Shown here in pieces: positions 9,584 to 46,092 of a stretch of DNA of 46,969 nucleotides (position 1 is its first letter; every line of letters begins with the position of its first letter). Origin of the DNA: a virus (taxonomy: Duplodnaviria > Heunggongvirae > Uroviricota > Caudoviricetes); IMG/VR virus record IMGVR_UViG_3300045988_152627; one strand, written 5' to 3'. The notes beneath the pieces were generated by a model. It did no database searches. It had not been told where the DNA came from and was given only the letters and a program-made list of their open reading frames with translations. Both the position numbers and the translations under genes were made by a program.

Positions 9584-11047
9584 TTATTCAGAAAACAAGT
9601 TCAGCAGATAATCAGGATTATACTCCATGACGAACTCAATATCTCTGGCAGGTGAGAATGGTGTCATTTTTACATGGAATTTAACAATCCCGTCCATTAA
9701 TGACGTAATCGTGTTTTCAGACTGATCAAAGGTAACAACACCACCTGCAATATCCTGATTACCTGTGAGGCCGTTAAGCCAAATATTCGCACTTGTAACA
9801 ATCGATTCAATTAATCGACGGTTTGCAGGATTGTCTATTTTTGACCAATGCGAAAGAATTAACGTATTACCCACCCAGTTAAACATACGTCGGCAAACAC
9901 GAAATGCGTCTTTGGGGTCTGTAGATGTTGGATAAATAGCATTACGGTTTCCCCATGATTTCCAACCATCAAAATTAAGGCTTGTTACAATCCCCTGTCC
10001 ATTTAAGTAGTTTGCCTGGCTAATGTTAAGCCATACTTCACTGCCATCTTTACGTACAGCACCGTCCATCTGTAGTTTTATATTTGACGGAGAACGTGAT
10101 GGAATATCACCATACTGACTATCCAGCAAGCATGTTGCGGCCGCTAAATGGGTTGAGTGATGGTAAATATTGTCACCAAGTTTCACCATCGGCCAGCACA
10201 CTGTCTGGTTAGCGGCCATGTGATTATTGTTCTGTTTCCATTCAGGAACAGCCGAGTAATCACTGATAGTAGATTTATCGGTCGGCGCATCCGTTATAGC
10301 TTCTGCTTTGAACAATTCACTAATCAGCGCGGCTTTAGCCGCCATTAGCTGACCAACTTCACTATCAGAACTAAATCCAGGTGCAATCACTTGTCCAGGA
10401 ACTAACTTGAAGCGGGGATACACATCTGACAGTAACTCAAGCCCTGTATTGGCTTTAGTGTTGGAATCCACACCACCGATAATGTCATTTTTAGTTACGG
10501 CACCGGGATCAAGATGCGTATAACTAACCTTAAGAGTAGCGTCTTTTTCGGTAATTTTTCCTCCGCTAATAGCTGTAATGACCGTATAGCCATTATCATC
10601 CAGCGCCAGCACATAATCGGTATCAACCGTTAACCCAGGCGAATCACCATCTGCTTTTTTCACAACAACAGATTTATATAAGACACCATCGTTAGAGAGC
10701 GTACCTTTCCCGCCAGAAAGTTTTACTAACTCATCAGTAACGTCTTTCTTATGCTTTGCTGGATCAAGCACATTGATAAATACAACTGGCGCAACACCAT
10801 ATATTCCAAATGCGACTTTAATTACTTCGCTTAAAGTATATTTCTCGAAGTTTGTGCTATATCCTATTTTAGATACGGCCTCTGCGTATGTATAAGCAAT
10901 GATAGGTTTATTTACCGCTGAGGCTGGATCTTCTAACTGATTAACAGGAGCCGTACCAAATGCGACAATCAACCCAGCACTAACTTGCACTGGAGGAGTT
11001 ATAGATGTAGCCAGTTCAGATATATAAATACCGTGGCGATATCCCAT
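9584..11047 (-). CDS. Contractile tail sheath protein (FI-like)
   Basis: 487 aa, first gene of the sheath-tube-chaperone-tape measure block. Confidence 0.75.
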   Translation of the reverse strand: MGYRHGIYISELATSITPPVQVSAGLIVAFGTAPVNQLEDPASAVNKPIIAYTYAEAVSKIGYSTNFEKYTLSEVIKVAFGIYGVAPVVFINVLDPAKHKKDVTDELVKLSGGKGTLSNDGVLYKSVVVKKADGDSPGLTVDTDYVLALDDNGYTVITAISGGKITEKDATLKVSYTHLDPGAVTKNDIIGGVDSNTKANTGLELLSDVYPRFKLVPGQVIAPGFSSDSEVGQLMAAKAALISELFKAEAITDAPTDKSTISDYSAVPEWKQNNNHMAANQTVCWPMVKLGDNIYHHSTHLAAATCLLDSQYGDIPSRSPSNIKLQMDGAVRKDGSEVWLNISQANYLNGQGIVTSLNFDGWKSWGNRNAIYPTSTDPKDAFRVCRRMFNWVGNTLILSHWSKIDNPANRRLIESIVTSANIWLNGLTGNQDIAGGVVTFDQSENTITSLMDGIVKFHVKMTPFSPARDIEFVMEYNPDYLLNLFSE

Positions 11048-11337
11048 TATTTAATCTCCATGATAGAAGAAGAAACTCTAGAGTACATTACATACTCGAC
11101 ACTGGTTTTATCAGAAAGTCTTTTCTCTGCATCTGCAAAATCACTGGTTGCCACAAACAAACACTTTGCACCAGGAATATGTGATATTAATTTTTTACAC
11201 TCTGGAGATAAGCCATTCTTAAATAGTTTATGCTTCAAAATTGAGAGTTGAGGGATTGTTGGTCCTATATATACAAATGTTTGAGCAACATCTTCCTTCT
11301 TTTCTATATCTTCTTTACTACTTTTCTTATTAGCCAT
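11047..11337 (-). CDS. Hypothetical virion-associated protein
   Basis: 96 aa ORF coupled into the structural operon between head and tail modules. Confidence 0.35.
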   Translation of the reverse strand: MANKKSSKEDIEKKEDVAQTFVYIGPTIPQLSILKHKLFKNGLSPECKKLISHIPGAKCLFVATSDFADAEKRLSDKTSVEYVMYSRVSSSIMEIK

Positions 11338-11823
11338 TTAGATAAACTCCTGAGACTGAATATTCTGAGGCTTTAATACTAGCCACGTTCCAGTTGCTTC
11401 CGTTATCCAATATGGATACGGTTGATCATCAAACATTCGCCATCTGATATCGCCCTGAAAGAGAAATTTCTCTTCAAGTAAAGGCTTCTCCTGAAAATGA
11501 AACATCATCCTTTCAAGAAGAGCCATTACCCATTCATATCCAGTATGGTCCTCACAAAAACCACCTAGAAGAAACTTAACCTTAACTTCATCCGTTTCAG
11601 GCTGCATTCCTCCTTCCGTGGGCCTGATAATCACATGAGGAAATTCTGGCGGTTTATCTGGAGATGGTTGTGATTTAGGAGGCAAGTACCCTTTAAATAT
11701 TGTTGGAACAAACAATTTAATATCGCTGTCTGTTTCATCATAAGGAGGCCCCTGCACTAATAAATCATGGAAAACCTCATGTTCCAACCGATTTTTTATT
11801 GCATCTATCAAAAGATTAATCAA
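11338..11823 (-). CDS. Hypothetical protein, possibly tail completion / head-tail joining
   Basis: 161 aa ORF in the head-tail junction block; no recognisable motif. Confidence 0.4.
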   Translation of the reverse strand: MINLLIDAIKNRLEHEVFHDLLVQGPPYDETDSDIKLFVPTIFKGYLPPKSQPSPDKPPEFPHVIIRPTEGGMQPETDEVKVKFLLGGFCEDHTGYEWVMALLERMMFHFQEKPLLEEKFLFQGDIRWRMFDDQPYPYWITEATGTWLVLKPQNIQSQEFI

Positions 11824-12164
11824 ATCGGCATTCCTCTGTTAGTATTAACAGTGAGAGTTATTTCCAATACACCAACATTATCTGATACTTCATCAACAAT
11901 ATAATTTTTACCGTTGATTTTCATTGACTGGTCTTTGACAGGGAGAACAGGAAAATCTTTTCTTGAAACAAATAATATTATTTGCCCCTGATTTATTCCC
12001 TCTGCAAACTCAGCATATGAGCGTTTATTCCGCTCATGAATAAGGTCTGTATCAATAACGGCAAGGATATCCTTGCCGTCTATGTTATATGTATCGGCAA
12101 ACTCTTTTTCATTGAGGAATATTGCAGAAATATCTTGCGCTATAACCTCTTTGAAGGAGTTCAT
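11820..12164 (-). CDS. Hypothetical protein, possibly head completion / adaptor
   Basis: 114 aa, overlapping starts and stops with neighbours. Confidence 0.4.
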   Translation of the reverse strand: MNSFKEVIAQDISAIFLNEKEFADTYNIDGKDILAVIDTDLIHERNKRSYAEFAEGINQGQIILFVSRKDFPVLPVKDQSMKINGKNYIVDEVSDNVGVLEITLTVNTNRGMPI

Positions 12165-26083: not shown

Positions 26084-26159
26084 TTGGTGGCCCCTACCGG
26101 ATTTGAACCGATGACCGTGCGATTATGAGTCGCCTGCTCTAACCACTGAGCTAAGGGGC
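26084..26159 (-). tRNA. tRNA with CAU anticodon, most similar to tRNA-Ile2 (ileX-type); elongator Met not excluded
   Basis: 76-nt cloverleaf GGCCCCTTAGCTCAGTGGTTAGAGCAGGCGACTCATAATCGCACGGTCATCGGTTCAAATCCGGTAGGGGCCACCA: 7-bp acceptor stem, D and T arms, CTCATAA anticodon loop, encoded CCA. Confidence 0.85.
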
Positions 26160-26329
26160 CATATTTGATCTGTTTGTCTGGTGTGGCGCCGCGCACGAAA
26201 ATCCCAGCCAATAAATTCAGGATTTTTGGGCGCGGCGGCATATCAGACAAACATGGTTGATGCGTGCGCCCATGAGAAAAGCGCATAGAATGTTGTAACT
26301 ATATATTTATATAATTATAGAAATATATA

Positions 26330-34673: not shown

Positions 34674-34847
34674 TTAACGAACTCCAATTAAAACCACGAT
34701 ATGTGGTATTAAAACCACATATCGTGAGTTTTTCAATGGGCGAAACAAAAAATAACCTTCTAATTGTGGTCCACCTCTCGTCTTACCATGTGAAAACCAC
34801 TAAATGTGGTAATGTATAAATAACCCACCATTCACGATTGATGAGAC
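34674..34847. promoter_or_regulatory. Immunity-region operator/promoter block with three CCAC-N5-GTGG-type operators
   Basis: ACCACGATATGTGGT (34693..34707), ACCACATATCGTGAG (34713..34727), ACCACTAAATGTGGT (34796..34810) between divergent repressor and Cro-like genes. Confidence 0.6.
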
Positions 34848-35504
34848 ATGAAAAGCAACGACGAGAACATCAAGAAAGAAATAGGTCTGCGCATTCAGAC
34901 TCTACGGAAACAATCCGGCATGACTGCCGGAGATCTCCAGCAAGTCACTGGAATAGGCTTAAGCACCTTGCAGAACTATGAGGCCGGATTAAGACAACCA
35001 TCTATACCTGCCATCAAGAAAATCGCGCACGCCCTGAAAGCATCAGCGCCTTATATCGCGTGCTTAACAGATAACCCGTTCCCACCCCAGAATACTAACG
35101 CTCCTGTTATTCCTGGGCTTGTAGCTATAAAAAATGACATAGCATCGCACGCCGGAGAAAAGCCAGTGCTGGCGATAGAACAGGAGATTCTACGAAGCAA
35201 GAACATCAACCCATCGTCTCTGTCAGTTCTCCAGAGCAACGATGAGTTAATGTCACCAACAATATCCCCAGGCTCCCAAGTCCTGATTAATACAGACGAT
35301 ACAGAGATTCATGAGGGGATCTATGCCCTTGAAGACAGAAATGGCCTGGTTGTTTTGAGGCACTGTAGAGTCATACCGGGTGACAATGCTGTTATGCTGT
35401 CAACCGAAAGGGATGCTGAAATGAACACTAATCATCTGAATAACGAGGAATTTAAGCGTTATAAAGTTCTTGGCCGCGTAGTTAGTGTTGTCAACTGGTT
35501 ATGA
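34848..35504 (+). CDS. CI-like repressor (XRE HTH + S24/LexA-like C-terminal domain)
   Basis: 218 aa; HTH TAGDLQQVTGIGLSTLQNYEAG; C-terminal LexA/UmuD-like layout ending KVLGRVVSVVNWL. Confidence 0.8.
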   Translation: MKSNDENIKKEIGLRIQTLRKQSGMTAGDLQQVTGIGLSTLQNYEAGLRQPSIPAIKKIAHALKASAPYIACLTDNPFPPQNTNAPVIPGLVAIKNDIASHAGEKPVLAIEQEILRSKNINPSSLSVLQSNDELMSPTISPGSQVLINTDDTEIHEGIYALEDRNGLVVLRHCRVIPGDNAVMLSTERDAEMNTNHLNNEEFKRYKVLGRVVSVVNWL

Positions 35505-35545: not shown

Positions 35546-35560
35546 AACCACGCTTTGTGG
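35546..35560. promoter_or_regulatory. Operator-like palindrome ACCACGCTTTGTGGT overlapping a promoter for 35597..35971
   Basis: Same CCAC-N5-GTGG pattern as the immunity-region operators; followed by TTGACA and TATAAA elements and RBS AAGAGG. Confidence 0.45.
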
Positions 35561-35596
35561 TTTTGACAACATGTGAAAGTATAAAAGAGGCTACGC

Positions 35597-35971
35597 ATGG
35601 AATTACATACAGCCAATAAAAACGAAACTCTGATCACTGCTGGAATCGAAATCCAAGCGTTGAACATAGCGATTGAGTGTATGTTATGCCAAATCATTGA
35701 TAATGAGAAAGATATCGACTGGATAGAATCTATCCTTCATCTGGCATCAGAACAAAAAGTCTGCCTCAAAACGGCCTTACAATACGATGTGCCAGCGGTA
35801 TCGAAGCTGTGCCAGCCATTGATGGCATATAACAGGGCTATTACTTCTGTATGCCTCATGATTCTTGATGAAAACACCCCTCTTAGTGACCGCTCAGAAG
35901 CTGCTCTAACCCTCTCACGTAAACAGCGACAGCTAGCAAATCAACTGATATCAACGATAGCTGACCTCTGA
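35597..35971 (+). CDS. Hypothetical protein in the rex-equivalent position downstream of the repressor
   Basis: 124 aa ORF with strong RBS, followed by terminator hairpin 35976..35999. Confidence 0.45.
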   Translation: MELHTANKNETLITAGIEIQALNIAIECMLCQIIDNEKDIDWIESILHLASEQKVCLKTALQYDVPAVSKLCQPLMAYNRAITSVCLMILDENTPLSDRSEAALTLSRKQRQLANQLISTIADL

Positions 35972-36106: not shown

Positions 36107-36775
36107 ATGGAGTCTCGACAAATGACTATCTCTGTAGGTATTTTCAACGGAAAAGGCGGCGTAACCAAATCAACAATTGCCCGTGCTTTAGCAGTTGCTT
36201 ATGCAAAGGCCGGCTGGAATGTATGCCTGATCGATATGGATGTGCTTAACGGAACGGTAACGCGTTGGGTACAACGCAGAATGGCCAACAATATCGAACC
36301 TGCAATCGCGGCGCAGCCGTGCGGCACGCCATCACAAGTCCAGAAAATCATCGAATCAGAAGTATACGACCTGGTTATCGTTGATGGCGGTGCCTACGCA
36401 TCTGAATCAGTACCGAAGCTCTCTGAATTTCTGGATATGGTTATTTTGCCAACCAGATTCTCTACCGATGACCTAGAAACCACCGTTAACACAGCTCACG
36501 GCATCGTTAAAAAGGGTGTACCAATCAAGAAAATTTGCATGGTGTTTTCCGGCGCGGCTGAAAACGAAGCTGACTATATTGAAGCCCAAGAGTACCTGGC
36601 TAATACGCCATACTTTGTTGTCGATAAGTACATTCCCCACAAGCCAGCTCTGAGCAAAGCTCAGGATAAGGGCTTAAGCCTCATTGAGTGCTCATACGTT
36701 GCGCCACGCAAAAAGGCAGACGACGTTATTCAGGGGATTATCAACCAGCTTGAGGCTCTGACTACTGCCGCGTAA
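36107..36775 (+). CDS. parA: ParA-family partition ATPase (small, type Ib)
   Basis: 222 aa with deviant Walker A NGKGGVTKST and later VIVDGGA motif. Confidence 0.85.
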   Translation: MESRQMTISVGIFNGKGGVTKSTIARALAVAYAKAGWNVCLIDMDVLNGTVTRWVQRRMANNIEPAIAAQPCGTPSQVQKIIESEVYDLVIVDGGAYASESVPKLSEFLDMVILPTRFSTDDLETTVNTAHGIVKKGVPIKKICMVFSGAAENEADYIEAQEYLANTPYFVVDKYIPHKPALSKAQDKGLSLIECSYVAPRKKADDVIQGIINQLEALTTAA

Positions 36776-36818: not shown

Positions 36819-37067
36819 ATGGCCGCACCATCAAAACCACCAAAGAAGAACAGCAAAGGCGTACCGCCATCGATCGAACAACCGCAGGTTTTCGACCCGA
36901 CTGAAACGCCAACCAGAACCAAATCAGGTGGGGCACAAATGGCGTTTAACGTCGACCCTGAATTTAAACGCGAGTACAAAACGTTCGCCAGCTCAATGGA
37001 TATGTCATTGAAAGAAGTGCTGACAAAATCTTTTGAGTTACTCAAGGCTCAATACAACCAGAAGTAA
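36819..37067 (+). CDS. ParG-like ribbon-helix-helix centromere-binding protein
   Basis: 82 aa; Pro/Lys-rich tail then RHH-like MAFNVDPEFKREYKTFASSMDMSLKEVL; directly downstream of parA. Confidence 0.6.
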   Translation: MAAPSKPPKKNSKGVPPSIEQPQVFDPTETPTRTKSGGAQMAFNVDPEFKREYKTFASSMDMSLKEVLTKSFELLKAQYNQK

Positions 37068-37279: not shown

Positions 37280-37295
37280 ATTCAACCATAAAAAA

Positions 37296-37311
37296 GGCCC
37301 CCGAAGGGGCC
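37296..37311. terminator. Bidirectional terminator hairpin GGCCCCCGAAGGGGCC
   Basis: Perfect GC-rich hairpin flanked by an A-run upstream and T-rich sequence on the opposite strand. Confidence 0.55.
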
Positions 37312-37877
37312 TAATCGCTACTTGCTGCTAATGTTTATCGTCACATTCAGAGCGTTATCAGTAATCTTCCAACCCTCCCCATGTGGCGTAAACAAAGCCC
37401 CAGTAACAACGATAAAAATACACATACAGTATTTTTTCATTGTATGGCCCTTACAGGCCGTTTCACGGCATCCCCACCGACGAAAACAACGCGAGAGCAA
37501 GCACGGCTGCTTGTGCTTGCATGTACGGCAACAGGAAATCCTCCCCTAAAGTCGGTGCCCGGGTGCGAATCGGCGGGAAGGTCCACAGGTATTTTACGAT
37601 TATTTTAAGATTAGTAATAGGAAATAAATTAAACGAAAAAACCAGTTTATTTTCACAAAATCAGTAACCTACCCACAATCTGTGAGTTTGCAGACACAAC
37701 AAGAACCACAATTTTTTGAAGCATAATAGTGGACTATTATTACCTTTTGGGTAAAATCAACTTGCTGCTTGTGCTTGCGTGGTTGTTTATACAACAACGT
37801 AATGCTGAAAGGACCGCGAATCCGATCAGCACGAAAGAACCGTCCTCAATAGGGCGGTTTTTTTGTTTCTTCACTCA

Positions 37878-38417: not shown

Positions 38418-38554
38418 TTTTTATCCCCATATTGAATTTTTTCTTTGTTCCCAACTTTAACAAAACACCACAACTTAGGAATGTATAGTTCCTTAAATGA
38501 ATCATACATTCCCACCTTCGGTATATCAAGAAAATTAAAAGCTCGGCATTCAAA

Positions 38555-38569
38555 CCCACACTATGTGGT
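38555..38569. promoter_or_regulatory. Operator-like palindrome CCCACACTATGTGGT upstream of the antirepressor operon
   Basis: CCAC-N5-GTGG pattern 25 bp upstream of a TTGACA element at 38593..38598. Confidence 0.45.
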
Positions 38570-38864
38570 TGTCTCTGTTAAAATCCCGCCGTATTGACAT
38601 GAATGCGCCATTGGTGGACACTTTCCGAGCCGTAGCAAAATCTACGGTCGGGATTAGCCTCCTGAATAACACGATGGCGCATACCGCGTTAGCGGTTTTT
38701 TTATGCGTAGAGCACTGTTACGCCCAAATTATGGTGGGTCGTACAGGGGCGGAGAAATCCGCGCCGGTTCGTCATTGTGTCCGGTAAGGCTAACCCTGTA
38801 CGGCTCACCACCATTTGATTAGCCTCGAATGGCGGTGATAGTTCCATATATTGGAGATATCACA

Positions 38865-45054: not shown

Positions 45055-45903
45055 TTAATGCTGGAGTGATTTCCAGGTCTTTCTTAGCCTGTTATAACGC
45101 TGCTCAACGAGGGATCGTAAATATGCAAGGTCAGCTCCAGGATACATGCCATCAGCAAATTCCTGGCTAACCTCTCTAGTGATTTGATGACGAAGTTCGG
45201 CCTCTCCCTTTTCCCGAACAAGACGCGCAGCTCTCTCCGCTGCTTTCTGTTTTGCCTTTATCTCTCTAGCCGTCTTCCTCTGACGCCATACATTCTCCAT
45301 CTGCTCCTGAATAACAATACGCTTATAATCAGCCTCCGTTATCGCTTTTTTAAGCCGTTCGCTATTCTTCGCATTGAAGTAATTAAGTTTCTGGCTAACC
45401 GCACGTCTCCATGCTTGTTCAGTAATACCAACGGTTTCCAGAAGTTGATCACGAATCTCTATTTTCGCTGGCCAATACTGTTTATTCACCCGATCCCAGC
45501 GACGTTCATAATCAATAAAACCTAACGCTTTCAGTTGCGACAACGCCCTTGTACAGCGCGTTATAGACTTGTTCCCAGCTTCGGATACGGTAGACAGGCC
45601 GCAAAAATCAGCCAACGCCTCAGCACTGGCCAGAACCCGCTTAGAAATGATGTTTACATGGTGCAAAATCGCAGCAATCACAGCATTAATCGCCCGACGA
45701 CGATGCTCGTTTATCCGGCGTTTCCGCTCTGACGGTTGATTAACGTAGAACGCAACCTCACACGTAAGATCACGACCATTAATGCGCTGTAAAGCATCAG
45801 ATAACACCAGCGGCAGCTTGTGCGTATGGTGCTTTGGAGGCTGGAACTCCGGCGACAAATTACAAACGTAAGCTGAACGTAGAGACTGCATTGGTCTATC
45901 CAT
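45055..45903 (-). CDS. repA: Plasmid replication initiator RepA, IncFII RepA1 family
   Basis: Segment RRAINAVIAAILHH...GNKSITRCTRALSQLKALGFIDYE parallels RepA1 RRAIDALLQGL...GKLSITRATRALTFLSELGLITYQ; start taken at the internal ATG 45903 (about 282 aa); the longer ORF to 46041 overlaps the antisense RNA. Confidence 0.8.
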   Translation of the reverse strand: MDRPMQSLRSAYVCNLSPEFQPPKHHTHKLPLVLSDALQRINGRDLTCEVAFYVNQPSERKRRINEHRRRAINAVIAAILHHVNIISKRVLASAEALADFCGLSTVSEAGNKSITRCTRALSQLKALGFIDYERRWDRVNKQYWPAKIEIRDQLLETVGITEQAWRRAVSQKLNYFNAKNSERLKKAITEADYKRIVIQEQMENVWRQRKTAREIKAKQKAAERAARLVREKGEAELRHQITREVSQEFADGMYPGADLAYLRSLVEQRYNRLRKTWKSLQH

Positions 45904-45947
45904 ATGTTCGCTCTTGCGTCCACGGAAAACCAACGTATAATGGGAGT

Positions 45948-46036
45948 TGTCGAGGCGCCCATGGATTGTTGTTGGTTTTTGTTTCTTTCCGTGGATGTCG
46001 CAAGAAGCCCGCAGATTTATCTGCGGGCTTTTTGTT
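45948..46036 (+). ncRNA. CopA-like antisense RNA candidate (countertranscript to the repA leader)
   Basis: Plus-strand promoter TTGCGT-N16-TATAAT (45914..45941), stem-loop AAAACCAAC/GTTGGTTTT, and terminator hairpin AGCCCGCAGA-TTTA-TCTGCGGGCT plus T-run (46006..46036). Confidence 0.5.
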
Positions 46037-46077
46037 TCCATATCTGGTCACTTTCCAACCAGACACCCACAATCATA

Positions 46078-46092
46078 ACCACGTTACGTGGT
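46078..46092. promoter_or_regulatory. Operator-like palindrome ACCACGTTACGTGGT upstream of the repA leader
   Basis: Same CCAC-N5-GTGG pattern as the repressor operators, between the invertase stop and the repA control region. Confidence 0.4.

Follow-up and report, generated by a model that had tools for sequence, protein, structure and literature searches.

How can a lysogenic state be ended when the repressor that maintains it resembles the self-cleaving CI and LexA proteins but appears to have lost the residues that cleave? This question is raised by a CI-type repressor gene in the IMG/VR virus record IMGVR_UViG_3300045988_152627, a stretch of 46,969 nucleotides from a member of the Caudoviricetes that was analysed as a whole and is referred to below as the window. 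According to the original prediction, the product of this gene follows the layout of the S24 peptidases without their Ser/Lys dyad, does not cleave itself and is instead induced through an antirepressor encoded further downstream, as in some Salmonella prophages. We demonstrate that the dyad is lost from a C-terminal domain that has kept the S24 fold and is conserved among its homologues. With moderate confidence, we propose that the protein is a non-cleaving pseudo-protease immunity repressor of a phage-plasmid and that it is released, most likely, by an RNA-gated ORF6N/Rha protein.

The S24 fold without its catalytic dyad

Close homologues of the repressor are few. A search of 5.8 billion proteins returned only 13 clusters with identities of 60-99%, nearly all of them from Enterobacteriaceae, and their long-contig members lie on contigs of about 46-49 kb; in related records the protein is annotated as 'repressor protein' or as a helix-turn-helix (HTH) protein. 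Residues 12-22 and 34-49, in the HTH region, are invariant in the family alignment. The C-terminal domain matches the Pfam family Peptidase_S24 (PF00717) over residues 113-212 only below threshold (17.9 bits against a cut-off of 23.3, E 0.0026), and sequence searches of the PDB with the repressor protein and with the family profile returned HTH proteins only, so that the link to S24 proteins had to be sought by profile-profile and fold comparison. Alignment of the family against 31 canonical S24 proteins (LexA, lambda CI, UmuD and 28 relatives) by hhalign gave a probability of 99.85% and an E-value of 1.3e-30, and a hidden Markov model (HMM) built from the canonical C-terminal domains alone scored the repressor at 73 bits. 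The AlphaFold model of the repressor has a predicted local distance difference test (pLDDT) score of 86.8, rising above 90 for the C-terminal domain. When the last 129 residues were used as the query of an exhaustive phmmer search, 57 representatives were obtained, and 45 of 50 sequences comprising the query, its family and distant phmmer matches have a Peptidase_S24 match at E up to 0.01. We regard the assignment of the C-terminal domain to the LexA/signal-peptidase beta-fold shared by LexA, CI and UmuD as solid.

Within this fold both catalytic residues are replaced. In five alignments made with four methods (MAFFT, hhalign, hmmsearch and hmmalign), residues D132-E133-L134-M135 uniformly fall on the canonical G-x-S-M motif. 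The column of the nucleophilic Ser is occupied by Leu134 in 13/13 family sequences and is followed by the retained Met135. The column of the general-base Lys corresponds to Arg171 according to MAFFT and, for most family members, hmmalign, or to Leu170 in the gap-free HMM alignments, and neither gap placement yields a lysine. The family alignment contains no conserved Lys in the C-terminal domain at all; its invariant lysines are K2, K9 and K21. The original prediction had read NDELM as Glu/Leu in place of Ser-Met and had found LVVLRHCR to be devoid of the general base. The S24 layout, the absence of the dyad and the replacement of Lys are borne out; none of the four methods places Ser and Lys at the catalytic positions. 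For the nucleophile, the loss of Ser was recognized correctly while the exact match was not: it is Leu134 that takes the place of Ser, and the Met is still there. As the dyad is lost from the S24 layout, RecA-stimulated self-cleavage of the repressor is very unlikely as far as the sequence allows one to judge, which supports the proposal of a non-autocleavable protein.

The loss of the dyad does not look like the beginning of decay. Among homologues that are 60-99% identical, L134, R171-H172-C173-R174, P177-G178-D179-N180 and G209-R210-V211-V212-S213 are invariant. The nonsynonymous divergence (pN) in the C-terminal domain amounts to 0.14-0.29, well under the saturated synonymous divergence (pS) of 0.53-0.73, so the domain is maintained by selection. 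Judging from this pattern, the dyad-less domain is a working non-catalytic module under purifying selection.

The repressor allele of the Escherichia coli reference strain ATCC 25922 (locus L002, 4248..4910 of NZ_CP009073.1) encodes 220 amino acids and is otherwise nearly identical to the query. It carries a two-residue insertion inside the pseudo-active-site motif, NDEL-KL-MSPT versus NDELMSPT; the dead cleft tolerates this insertion in a stably maintained plasmid.

Predicted operators and the role of the repressor

The palindrome AAAACCAC-N5-GTGGTTTT (ACCAC-N5-GTGGT), flanked by A/T-rich sequence, is found with at most one mismatch at 8 sites in the window, where 0.83 are expected. Four putative operators, O1 to O4, surround the repressor gene, and a further exact site precedes the replication gene repA (Table 1). 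O1 and O2 lie at a leftward promoter (TTGAAA-17-TTTAAT) that was read from the sequence by hand; a consensus promoter scan of the switch region was uninformative. This promoter faces an operon of about 20 genes that runs opposite to the repressor gene and has lysis genes at its end. Although the repressors of four relatives are only 61-65% identical to the query, their operator sites are found in matching positions, with half-sites that are invariant and spacers that vary. The surplus of operators, their conserved positions and the divergent early operon together make the protein look like the primary immunity repressor of the element. The exact palindrome upstream of repA, present in L009, L011 and L012 (numbers of this kind designate related loci) as well as in the window, suggests that the repressor also controls plasmid replication and would tie it to immunity, as CB of phage N15 does.

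According to the mechanism we propose, the N-terminal HTH domain would bind the palindrome, with O1 and O2 covering the leftward early promoter. O3 probably lies over the repressor's own promoter and is likely an autoregulatory site, and O4 would act in front of the next gene. The C-terminal pseudo-protease most likely serves only dimerisation, cooperative binding and partner recognition.

The RNA-gated cassette and a possible route to induction

If the repressor is incapable of RecA-stimulated self-cleavage, as is probable, derepression would be non-proteolytic or would come from outside the repressor. Such a role falls most likely to the ORF6N/Rha protein that had been named as the antirepressor. 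This protein, here called Ant, matches PHROG anti-repressor families, and over its N-terminal part it shares 57-60% identity with genes that carry the annotation Ant in Shiga toxin (Stx) and related E. coli phages. Its C-terminal region is matched only by phrog_8244, which spans the whole protein, and is shared with the corresponding proteins of L010 (11360..12064) and L012 (11738..12517), which belong to loci with the same repressor family and combine a Rha domain with this C-terminal region but have no ORF6N domain. The candidate is modular, with an additional N-terminal ORF6N domain in the version of the window compared to the Rha-only relatives.

Upstream of ant, an isrK-family RNA and a C4 antisense RNA are followed by an upstream open reading frame (uORF); both RNAs also occur in L010 and L012. 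The isrK RNA carries copies of both C4 target sequences and in this respect resembles the decoy a1/b1 of P1. The C4 loop GTCATTGTG is complementary over 9 nucleotides to CACAATGAC across the uORF start codon, C4 AGGCTAA is complementary over 7 nucleotides to TTAGCCT at 38819, and the stop of the uORF and the start of ant overlap in the sequence ATGA. Synthesis of Ant would be gated by a circuit of the P1 immI type, in which C4 masks the start of the translationally coupled uORF and isrK acts as a decoy or an activator.

The domain content, the PHROG matches, the identity to annotated Ant genes and the order isrK-C4-uORF-ant make induction through this protein plausible, as had been suggested. 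Several observations weigh against it. The designation 'antirepressor' derives from the annotation of its ORF6N and Rha domains. The cassette is variable: in L011 it is truncated (Rha, 10759..11175) and in L014 it is absent from the equivalent position, yet both loci encode the same dead-dyad repressor. No LexA box was detected near the cassette or the switch region with CTGT-N8-ACAG, with the 20-mer consensus at 3 mismatches or with CTG-N10-CAG, of which none of the 17 sites in the window lies in the regulatory region near ant or the switch, so that no link to DNA damage is visible. In addition, a weak repressor-type operator-like site is found upstream of the cassette, which is silenced by its own C4 RNA, and L012 has a one-mismatch site at the same distance upstream of isrK. 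Given this self-silencing and the weak site upstream, the cassette looks more like the anti-immunity circuits of P1 and N15 immA than like an SOS sensor. The RNA-gated cassette of P1 is an anti-immunity system and not an induction trigger, and in N15 the RNA-gated immA likewise provides anti-immunity while the separate gene antC triggers induction (PMC4488713). Against the non-cleaving reading of the repressor itself stands the Ala-Gly pair that the query allele still has in its loop.

The only perfect CTGT-N8-ACAG in the window, CTGTTAGTATTAACAG at 11836..11851, falls within an operon of structural genes that runs on the opposite strand, close to where the open reading frames (ORFs) 11338..11823 and 11820..12164 meet. 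With 0.46 such sites expected, we judged it to be a chance match.

Most of these observations would be accounted for if the repressor were non-cleavable but the cassette were an anti-immunity or superinfection module, comparable to P1 immI and N15 immA, and not the trigger of induction. The operator-like site would then place Ant downstream and not upstream of derepression, and a cassette that is silenced by C4, devoid of a nearby LexA box and variable or missing in relatives would be no surprise. Induction could depend on a small unrecognised antirepressor, on the operator-controlled 124-residue protein encoded next to the repressor, on a host protease, or on repressor loss by copy-number or segregation effects combined with a Cro-like switch. 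However, the window has no other identified antirepressor or protease gene, and the operator-like site, which differs from the palindrome by one mismatch and precedes the hand-read isrK -35 by 27 bp, was not found in L010. The gene of the 124-residue protein stands between the repressor gene and parA, with O4 in front, in the window and in all relatives examined, and most of its homologues come from contigs of short or medium length, with the long contigs measuring 28-50 kb. Its model is a confident four-helix bundle (pLDDT 91.8) for which Foldseek returned generic or designed bundles only and no informative structural match. We consider an exclusively anti-immunity function of the cassette possible, if rather unlikely, and still favour release of the repressor by the ORF6N/Rha protein.

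Distant relatives and the fate of the cleavage loop

The loss of the dyad is not restricted to the family. Among 52 distant S24-like relatives from the C-terminal phmmer search (among P0015-P0069), 35 have kept the Ser/Lys dyad and 17 have not, as determined with hmmalign. Fifteen of the 17 have Arg at the Lys column; at the Ser column these have Ala, Leu, Val, Thr or Asn, while two retain Ser. Several dyad-less relatives still score above the Pfam Peptidase_S24 threshold, and the same LRWIR/LRYVR motif occurs in the repressors of Vibrio and Aliivibrio phages (PhiPS02, H905). As Arg is so frequent in place of Lys, the paired substitution seems to be recurrent, and a systematic survey of it may be worthwhile. 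One could go further and see in the exchange of Ser for a small or hydrophobic residue together with that of Lys for Arg, as also in 186 CI (Gly/Arg), not random decay but a recurrent selected solution that defines a large, unnamed class of pseudo-S24 repressors, in which the dead cleft with its retained Gly-containing loop now serves for regulated docking. The antirepressor, RecA* or the repressor's own loop could dock there; oligomerisation and DNA binding would be switched without proteolysis, and in phage-plasmids this would also set the copy number via repA. We regard this wider reading as speculative and unlikely.

The former cleavage region is still recognizable. Ala102-Gly103 (codons 35151..35156) lies in a predicted loop between strands 91-95 and 107-111 and, according to hhalign, no more than one position away from the Ala-Gly at which canonical S24 proteins are cleaved. 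The repressor might still be inactivated by proteolysis, either cut in trans at this site by a catalytically active S24 protein, for instance LexA or UmuD of the host, or degraded by a host protease like Lon or ClpXP. The context HAGEKPVLA resembles AAGEPLLA of LexA, and intermolecular cleavage by fragments of LexA and CI is known in vitro. On the other hand, the Gly of the loop is present in 11/13 family rows but the Ala in only 6/13; Ser-Gly stands in four rows, and one row lacks the Gly altogether. A metalloprotease gene of the ImmA/COG2856 type is not found adjacent to the repressor gene, and CB of N15, which has likewise lost the dyad, remains uncleaved after SOS induction (PMC10432266). 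Taken together, proteolytic inactivation seems very improbable to us.

The element and its other genes

The 6.7-kb repressor region shares 96-97% identity with circular plasmids from E. coli that measure about 48-49 kb, among them pO145_122715_2 (AP019710.1) and the plasmid of ATCC 25922 (48,488 bp), and is also matched by the three Yersinia phages vB_YpM_39, 41 and 44. In PLSDB, 261 plasmids match this region, 55 of which cover most of it at about 96-97% identity; these near-full matches include the plasmids of the reference strain ATCC 25922 and of an O145:H28 isolate. The ATCC 25922 plasmid record contains contractile-tail, baseplate, capsid, terminase and lysis genes next to a RepA initiator, ParA and a RelE/ParE toxin-antitoxin pair. 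Since structural and lysis genes of a phage are combined with these plasmid functions on one record, the element is a phage-plasmid of the myovirus type, with a circular genome of about 48 kb. An affiliation with the pSLy3 group of phage-plasmids was dropped, as this group is part of the SSU5 supercommunity (PMC7969092), and Yersinia phage HQ103 was rejected as a relative because the phage described in PMC11177050 is an unrelated 32-kb peduovirus. The features of the window are listed in Table 1.

Table 1. Features of the window that relate to the repressor, its operators, the antirepressor cassette and the plasmid functions
Feature	Position	Strand	Remarks
Putative CI-type immunity repressor gene, 218 amino acids	34848..35504	+	N-terminal HTH_3 domain and S24-like, non-catalytic C-terminal domain, joined by a linker
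HTH_3 DNA-binding domain, residues 16-69	34893..35054	+	Pfam E 4.5e-11
Relic of the cleavage-site region, residues 91-111	35118..35180	+	Strand, loop, strand; secondary structure from the model; partial conservation
S24-like beta-domain without catalytic dyad, residues 113-217	35184..35498	+	
Codon TTA, Leu134	35247..35249	+	Position of nucleophilic Ser (LexA S119, lambda CI S149); invariant in family
Codon AGG, Arg171	35358..35360	+	Position of general-base Lys (LexA K156, lambda CI K192); invariant
Putative operator O1, ACCACGATATGTGGT	34693..34707		Exact; a short way downstream of the -10 inferred for the leftward early promoter
Putative operator O2, ACCACATATCGTGAG	34714..34728		2 mismatches; within the inferred leftward promoter's spacer, at 21 bp from O1
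Putative operator O3, ACCACTAAATGTGGT	34796..34810		Exact; 38 bp upstream of the repressor ATG
Putative operator O4, ACCACGCTTTGTGGT	35547..35561		Exact; between repressor stop codon and gene of the 124-residue protein; position kept in all relatives examined
Operator-like site, ACCACGTTACGTGGT	46078..46092		Exact; 37 bp upstream of the repA start codon
Weak operator-like site, CCCACACTATGTGGT	38555..38569		1 mismatch; 74 bp upstream of isrK
isrK-family RNA	38629..38702	+	Rfam 65.7 bits, gathering score 50
C4 antisense RNA	38727..38815	+	Rfam 70.8 bits, gathering score 45
uORF, 63 amino acids	38865..39056	+	icd/orf45 analogue; phrog_7886 match starts at residue 13
Candidate antirepressor, 380 amino acids	39053..40195	+	ORF6N domain, Rha domain, C-terminal region
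First gene of the divergent leftward (early) operon, 164 amino acids	34179..34673	-	phrog_7452, unknown function; synteny with relatives
124-residue protein	35597..35971	+	phrog_7632, unknown function; between repressor gene and parA
ParA-type ATPase	36107..36775	+	
82-residue protein	36819..37067	+	phrog_6024; directly after ParA
ryfA RNA	37290..37586	-	143 bits, gathering score 80
Second HTH regulator (HTH_3/HTH_31), 179 amino acids	37878..38417	-	C-terminal half uncharacterised; divergent from the isrK-C4-ant operon
Inverted repeat GGAATGTAT-N17-ATACATTCC	38478..38512		Overlaps the predicted promoter of the 179-residue HTH regulator
repA, plasmid replication initiator (IncFII-type RepA)	45055..46041	-	Probably also repressor-controlled
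tRNA gene	26088..26160	-	Rfam 67 bits

On such an element the protein could in principle be mainly a regulator of plasmid maintenance, acting on repA and the block of the 124-residue protein and ParA, and not the lysis-lysogeny repressor, in which case its non-cleavage would be uninformative on induction; exact operator sites upstream of both targets and the presence of a second HTH regulator fit this view, but it is scarcely credible, as the strongest operator cluster (O1, O2 and O3) faces the operon that ends in lysis genes, the layout matches the CI/Cro switches and that of N15 CB, where one repressor does both jobs (PMC4488713), and the second HTH gene is missing from the relatives examined.

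Several neighbouring genes complete the picture. The first gene of the leftward operon encodes a protein whose N-terminus appears Cro/YdaS-like by eye and which has no match to a Pfam family. The ParA-type ATPase and the 82-residue phrog_6024 protein probably form a type Ib partition pair. The gene of the 179-residue HTH regulator was not found in L010-L014 and by this comparison is part of a variable region; its product may regulate the ant cassette locally. Within the ryfA region, a small ORF at 37318..37500 on the minus strand encodes MKKYCMCIFIVVTGALF..., and we take this locus to resemble the type I toxin loci of the TimP/TimR type. It may represent an additional plasmid-addiction module next to the RelE/ParE pair.

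With 55 near-full matches in PLSDB, phage-plasmids of this type are common. If their repressor cannot cleave itself, DNA-damaging antibiotics may not induce the element as they do lambdoid prophages. The control of lysis versus lysogeny and of copy number would then depend on the RNA-gated antirepressor and on further signals.

Comparison with known repressor systems

With lambda CI, LexA and UmuD (MEROPS S24), the repressor shares the two-domain layout, the C-terminal fold, motif elements retained around the active site (x-M-x-P-T-I, G-x-Φ-Φ and the C-terminal G-R-V-V) and the divergent CI/Cro-like arrangement of operators. Instead of the canonical Ser/Lys, however, it has Leu/Arg and scores below the Pfam gathering threshold, so self-cleavage is not to be expected.

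In P1/P7 immI (c4-icd-ant) and Gifsy-1 isrK-orf45-anrP, the parts of the antirepressor cassette occur in the same order as here, with a decoy or isrK followed by C4, a short uORF and ant, and the last two are coupled by ATGA. To our knowledge, the P1 repressor C1 is not an S24-type protein. Compared to P1 and Gifsy-1, Ant of the present element has an extra ORF6N domain and the C-terminal region that only phrog_8244 matches. In Gifsy-1, translation of the antirepressor AnrP was shown to be controlled by IsrK and coupled to the uORF (PMC4825925). The Gifsy repressors themselves are about 136 residues long and lack a C-terminal domain and a cleavage motif (PMC3121763), whereas the query has 218 residues and a complete S24-like domain. 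The likeness to 'some Salmonella prophages' in the original prediction was therefore imprecise with regard to the repressor, as short repressors of the GfoR/GtgR type are further away than 186 CI and N15 CB.

Antirepressor-mediated induction has been described for 186 and N15 (Lemire et al., PMC3121763), and the antirepressors of Gifsy, 186 and N15 are under LexA control (PMC3121763). N15 is a phage-plasmid like the present element, although a linear siphovirus with a protelomerase and not a circular myovirus-type plasmid with an IncFII-type RepA. Its repressor CB combines an HTH domain with a degenerate S24-like domain that has Gln/Gln at the Ser/Lys columns, compared to Leu/Arg in the query, and has been shown experimentally to be non-proteolytic (PMC10432266). 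CB binds three OR operators and operators of the repA promoter, linking immunity to replication (PMC4488713). As in the window, its gene is flanked by operators, and the operators at the divergent early promoter and at repA appear to match this arrangement at the sequence level. N15 also has an RNA-controlled anti-immunity operon, immA, with antA, icd, antB and a processed RNA (PMC4488713); the present cassette is RNA-gated as well. The N15 inducer AntC belongs to the SOS regulon (PMC4488713; PMC3121763), whereas a LexA box was not found near the cassette or switch here.

Like the query, CI of phage 186 consists of an HTH domain and a LexA/CI-fold C-terminal domain without the dyad, and its residues at the Ser and Lys columns of a common alignment are Gly and Arg. 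Local motifs are similar too: IRELTKLPG and LGRVVGV of 186 correspond to LRHCRVIPG and LGRVVSV of the query. The sequence match is nevertheless not significant, with an hhalign probability of 0.44%, so that the likeness rests on fold and shared substitutions and not on demonstrable sequence homology. Moreover, 186 CI matches Phage_CI_repr (PF07022) and Phage_CI_C (PF16452) with 92.9 and 78 bits, whereas the query has no match to either at E up to 1. The inducer also differs. Tum of 186 is annotated in the phage record as small, LexA-repressed and inhibiting DNA binding by CI, while the candidate here is a 380-residue ORF6N/Rha protein that is RNA-gated and without a LexA box. In addition, 186 integrates into the chromosome whereas the present element is a plasmid.

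By this comparison, 186 CI and N15 CB are better precedents for the degenerate S24-like domain than the Gifsy repressors. Silpe et al. classified 210/271 cI proteins of linear plasmid phages as 'putatively non-autoproteolytic' and set them aside (PMC10432266). With 186 CI (Gly/Arg) and N15 CB (Gln/Gln), the concept of a non-cleaving S24-like repressor is already established, and the repressor described here is a further case of this known state that adds a well-conserved example to the catalytically dead S24 domains.

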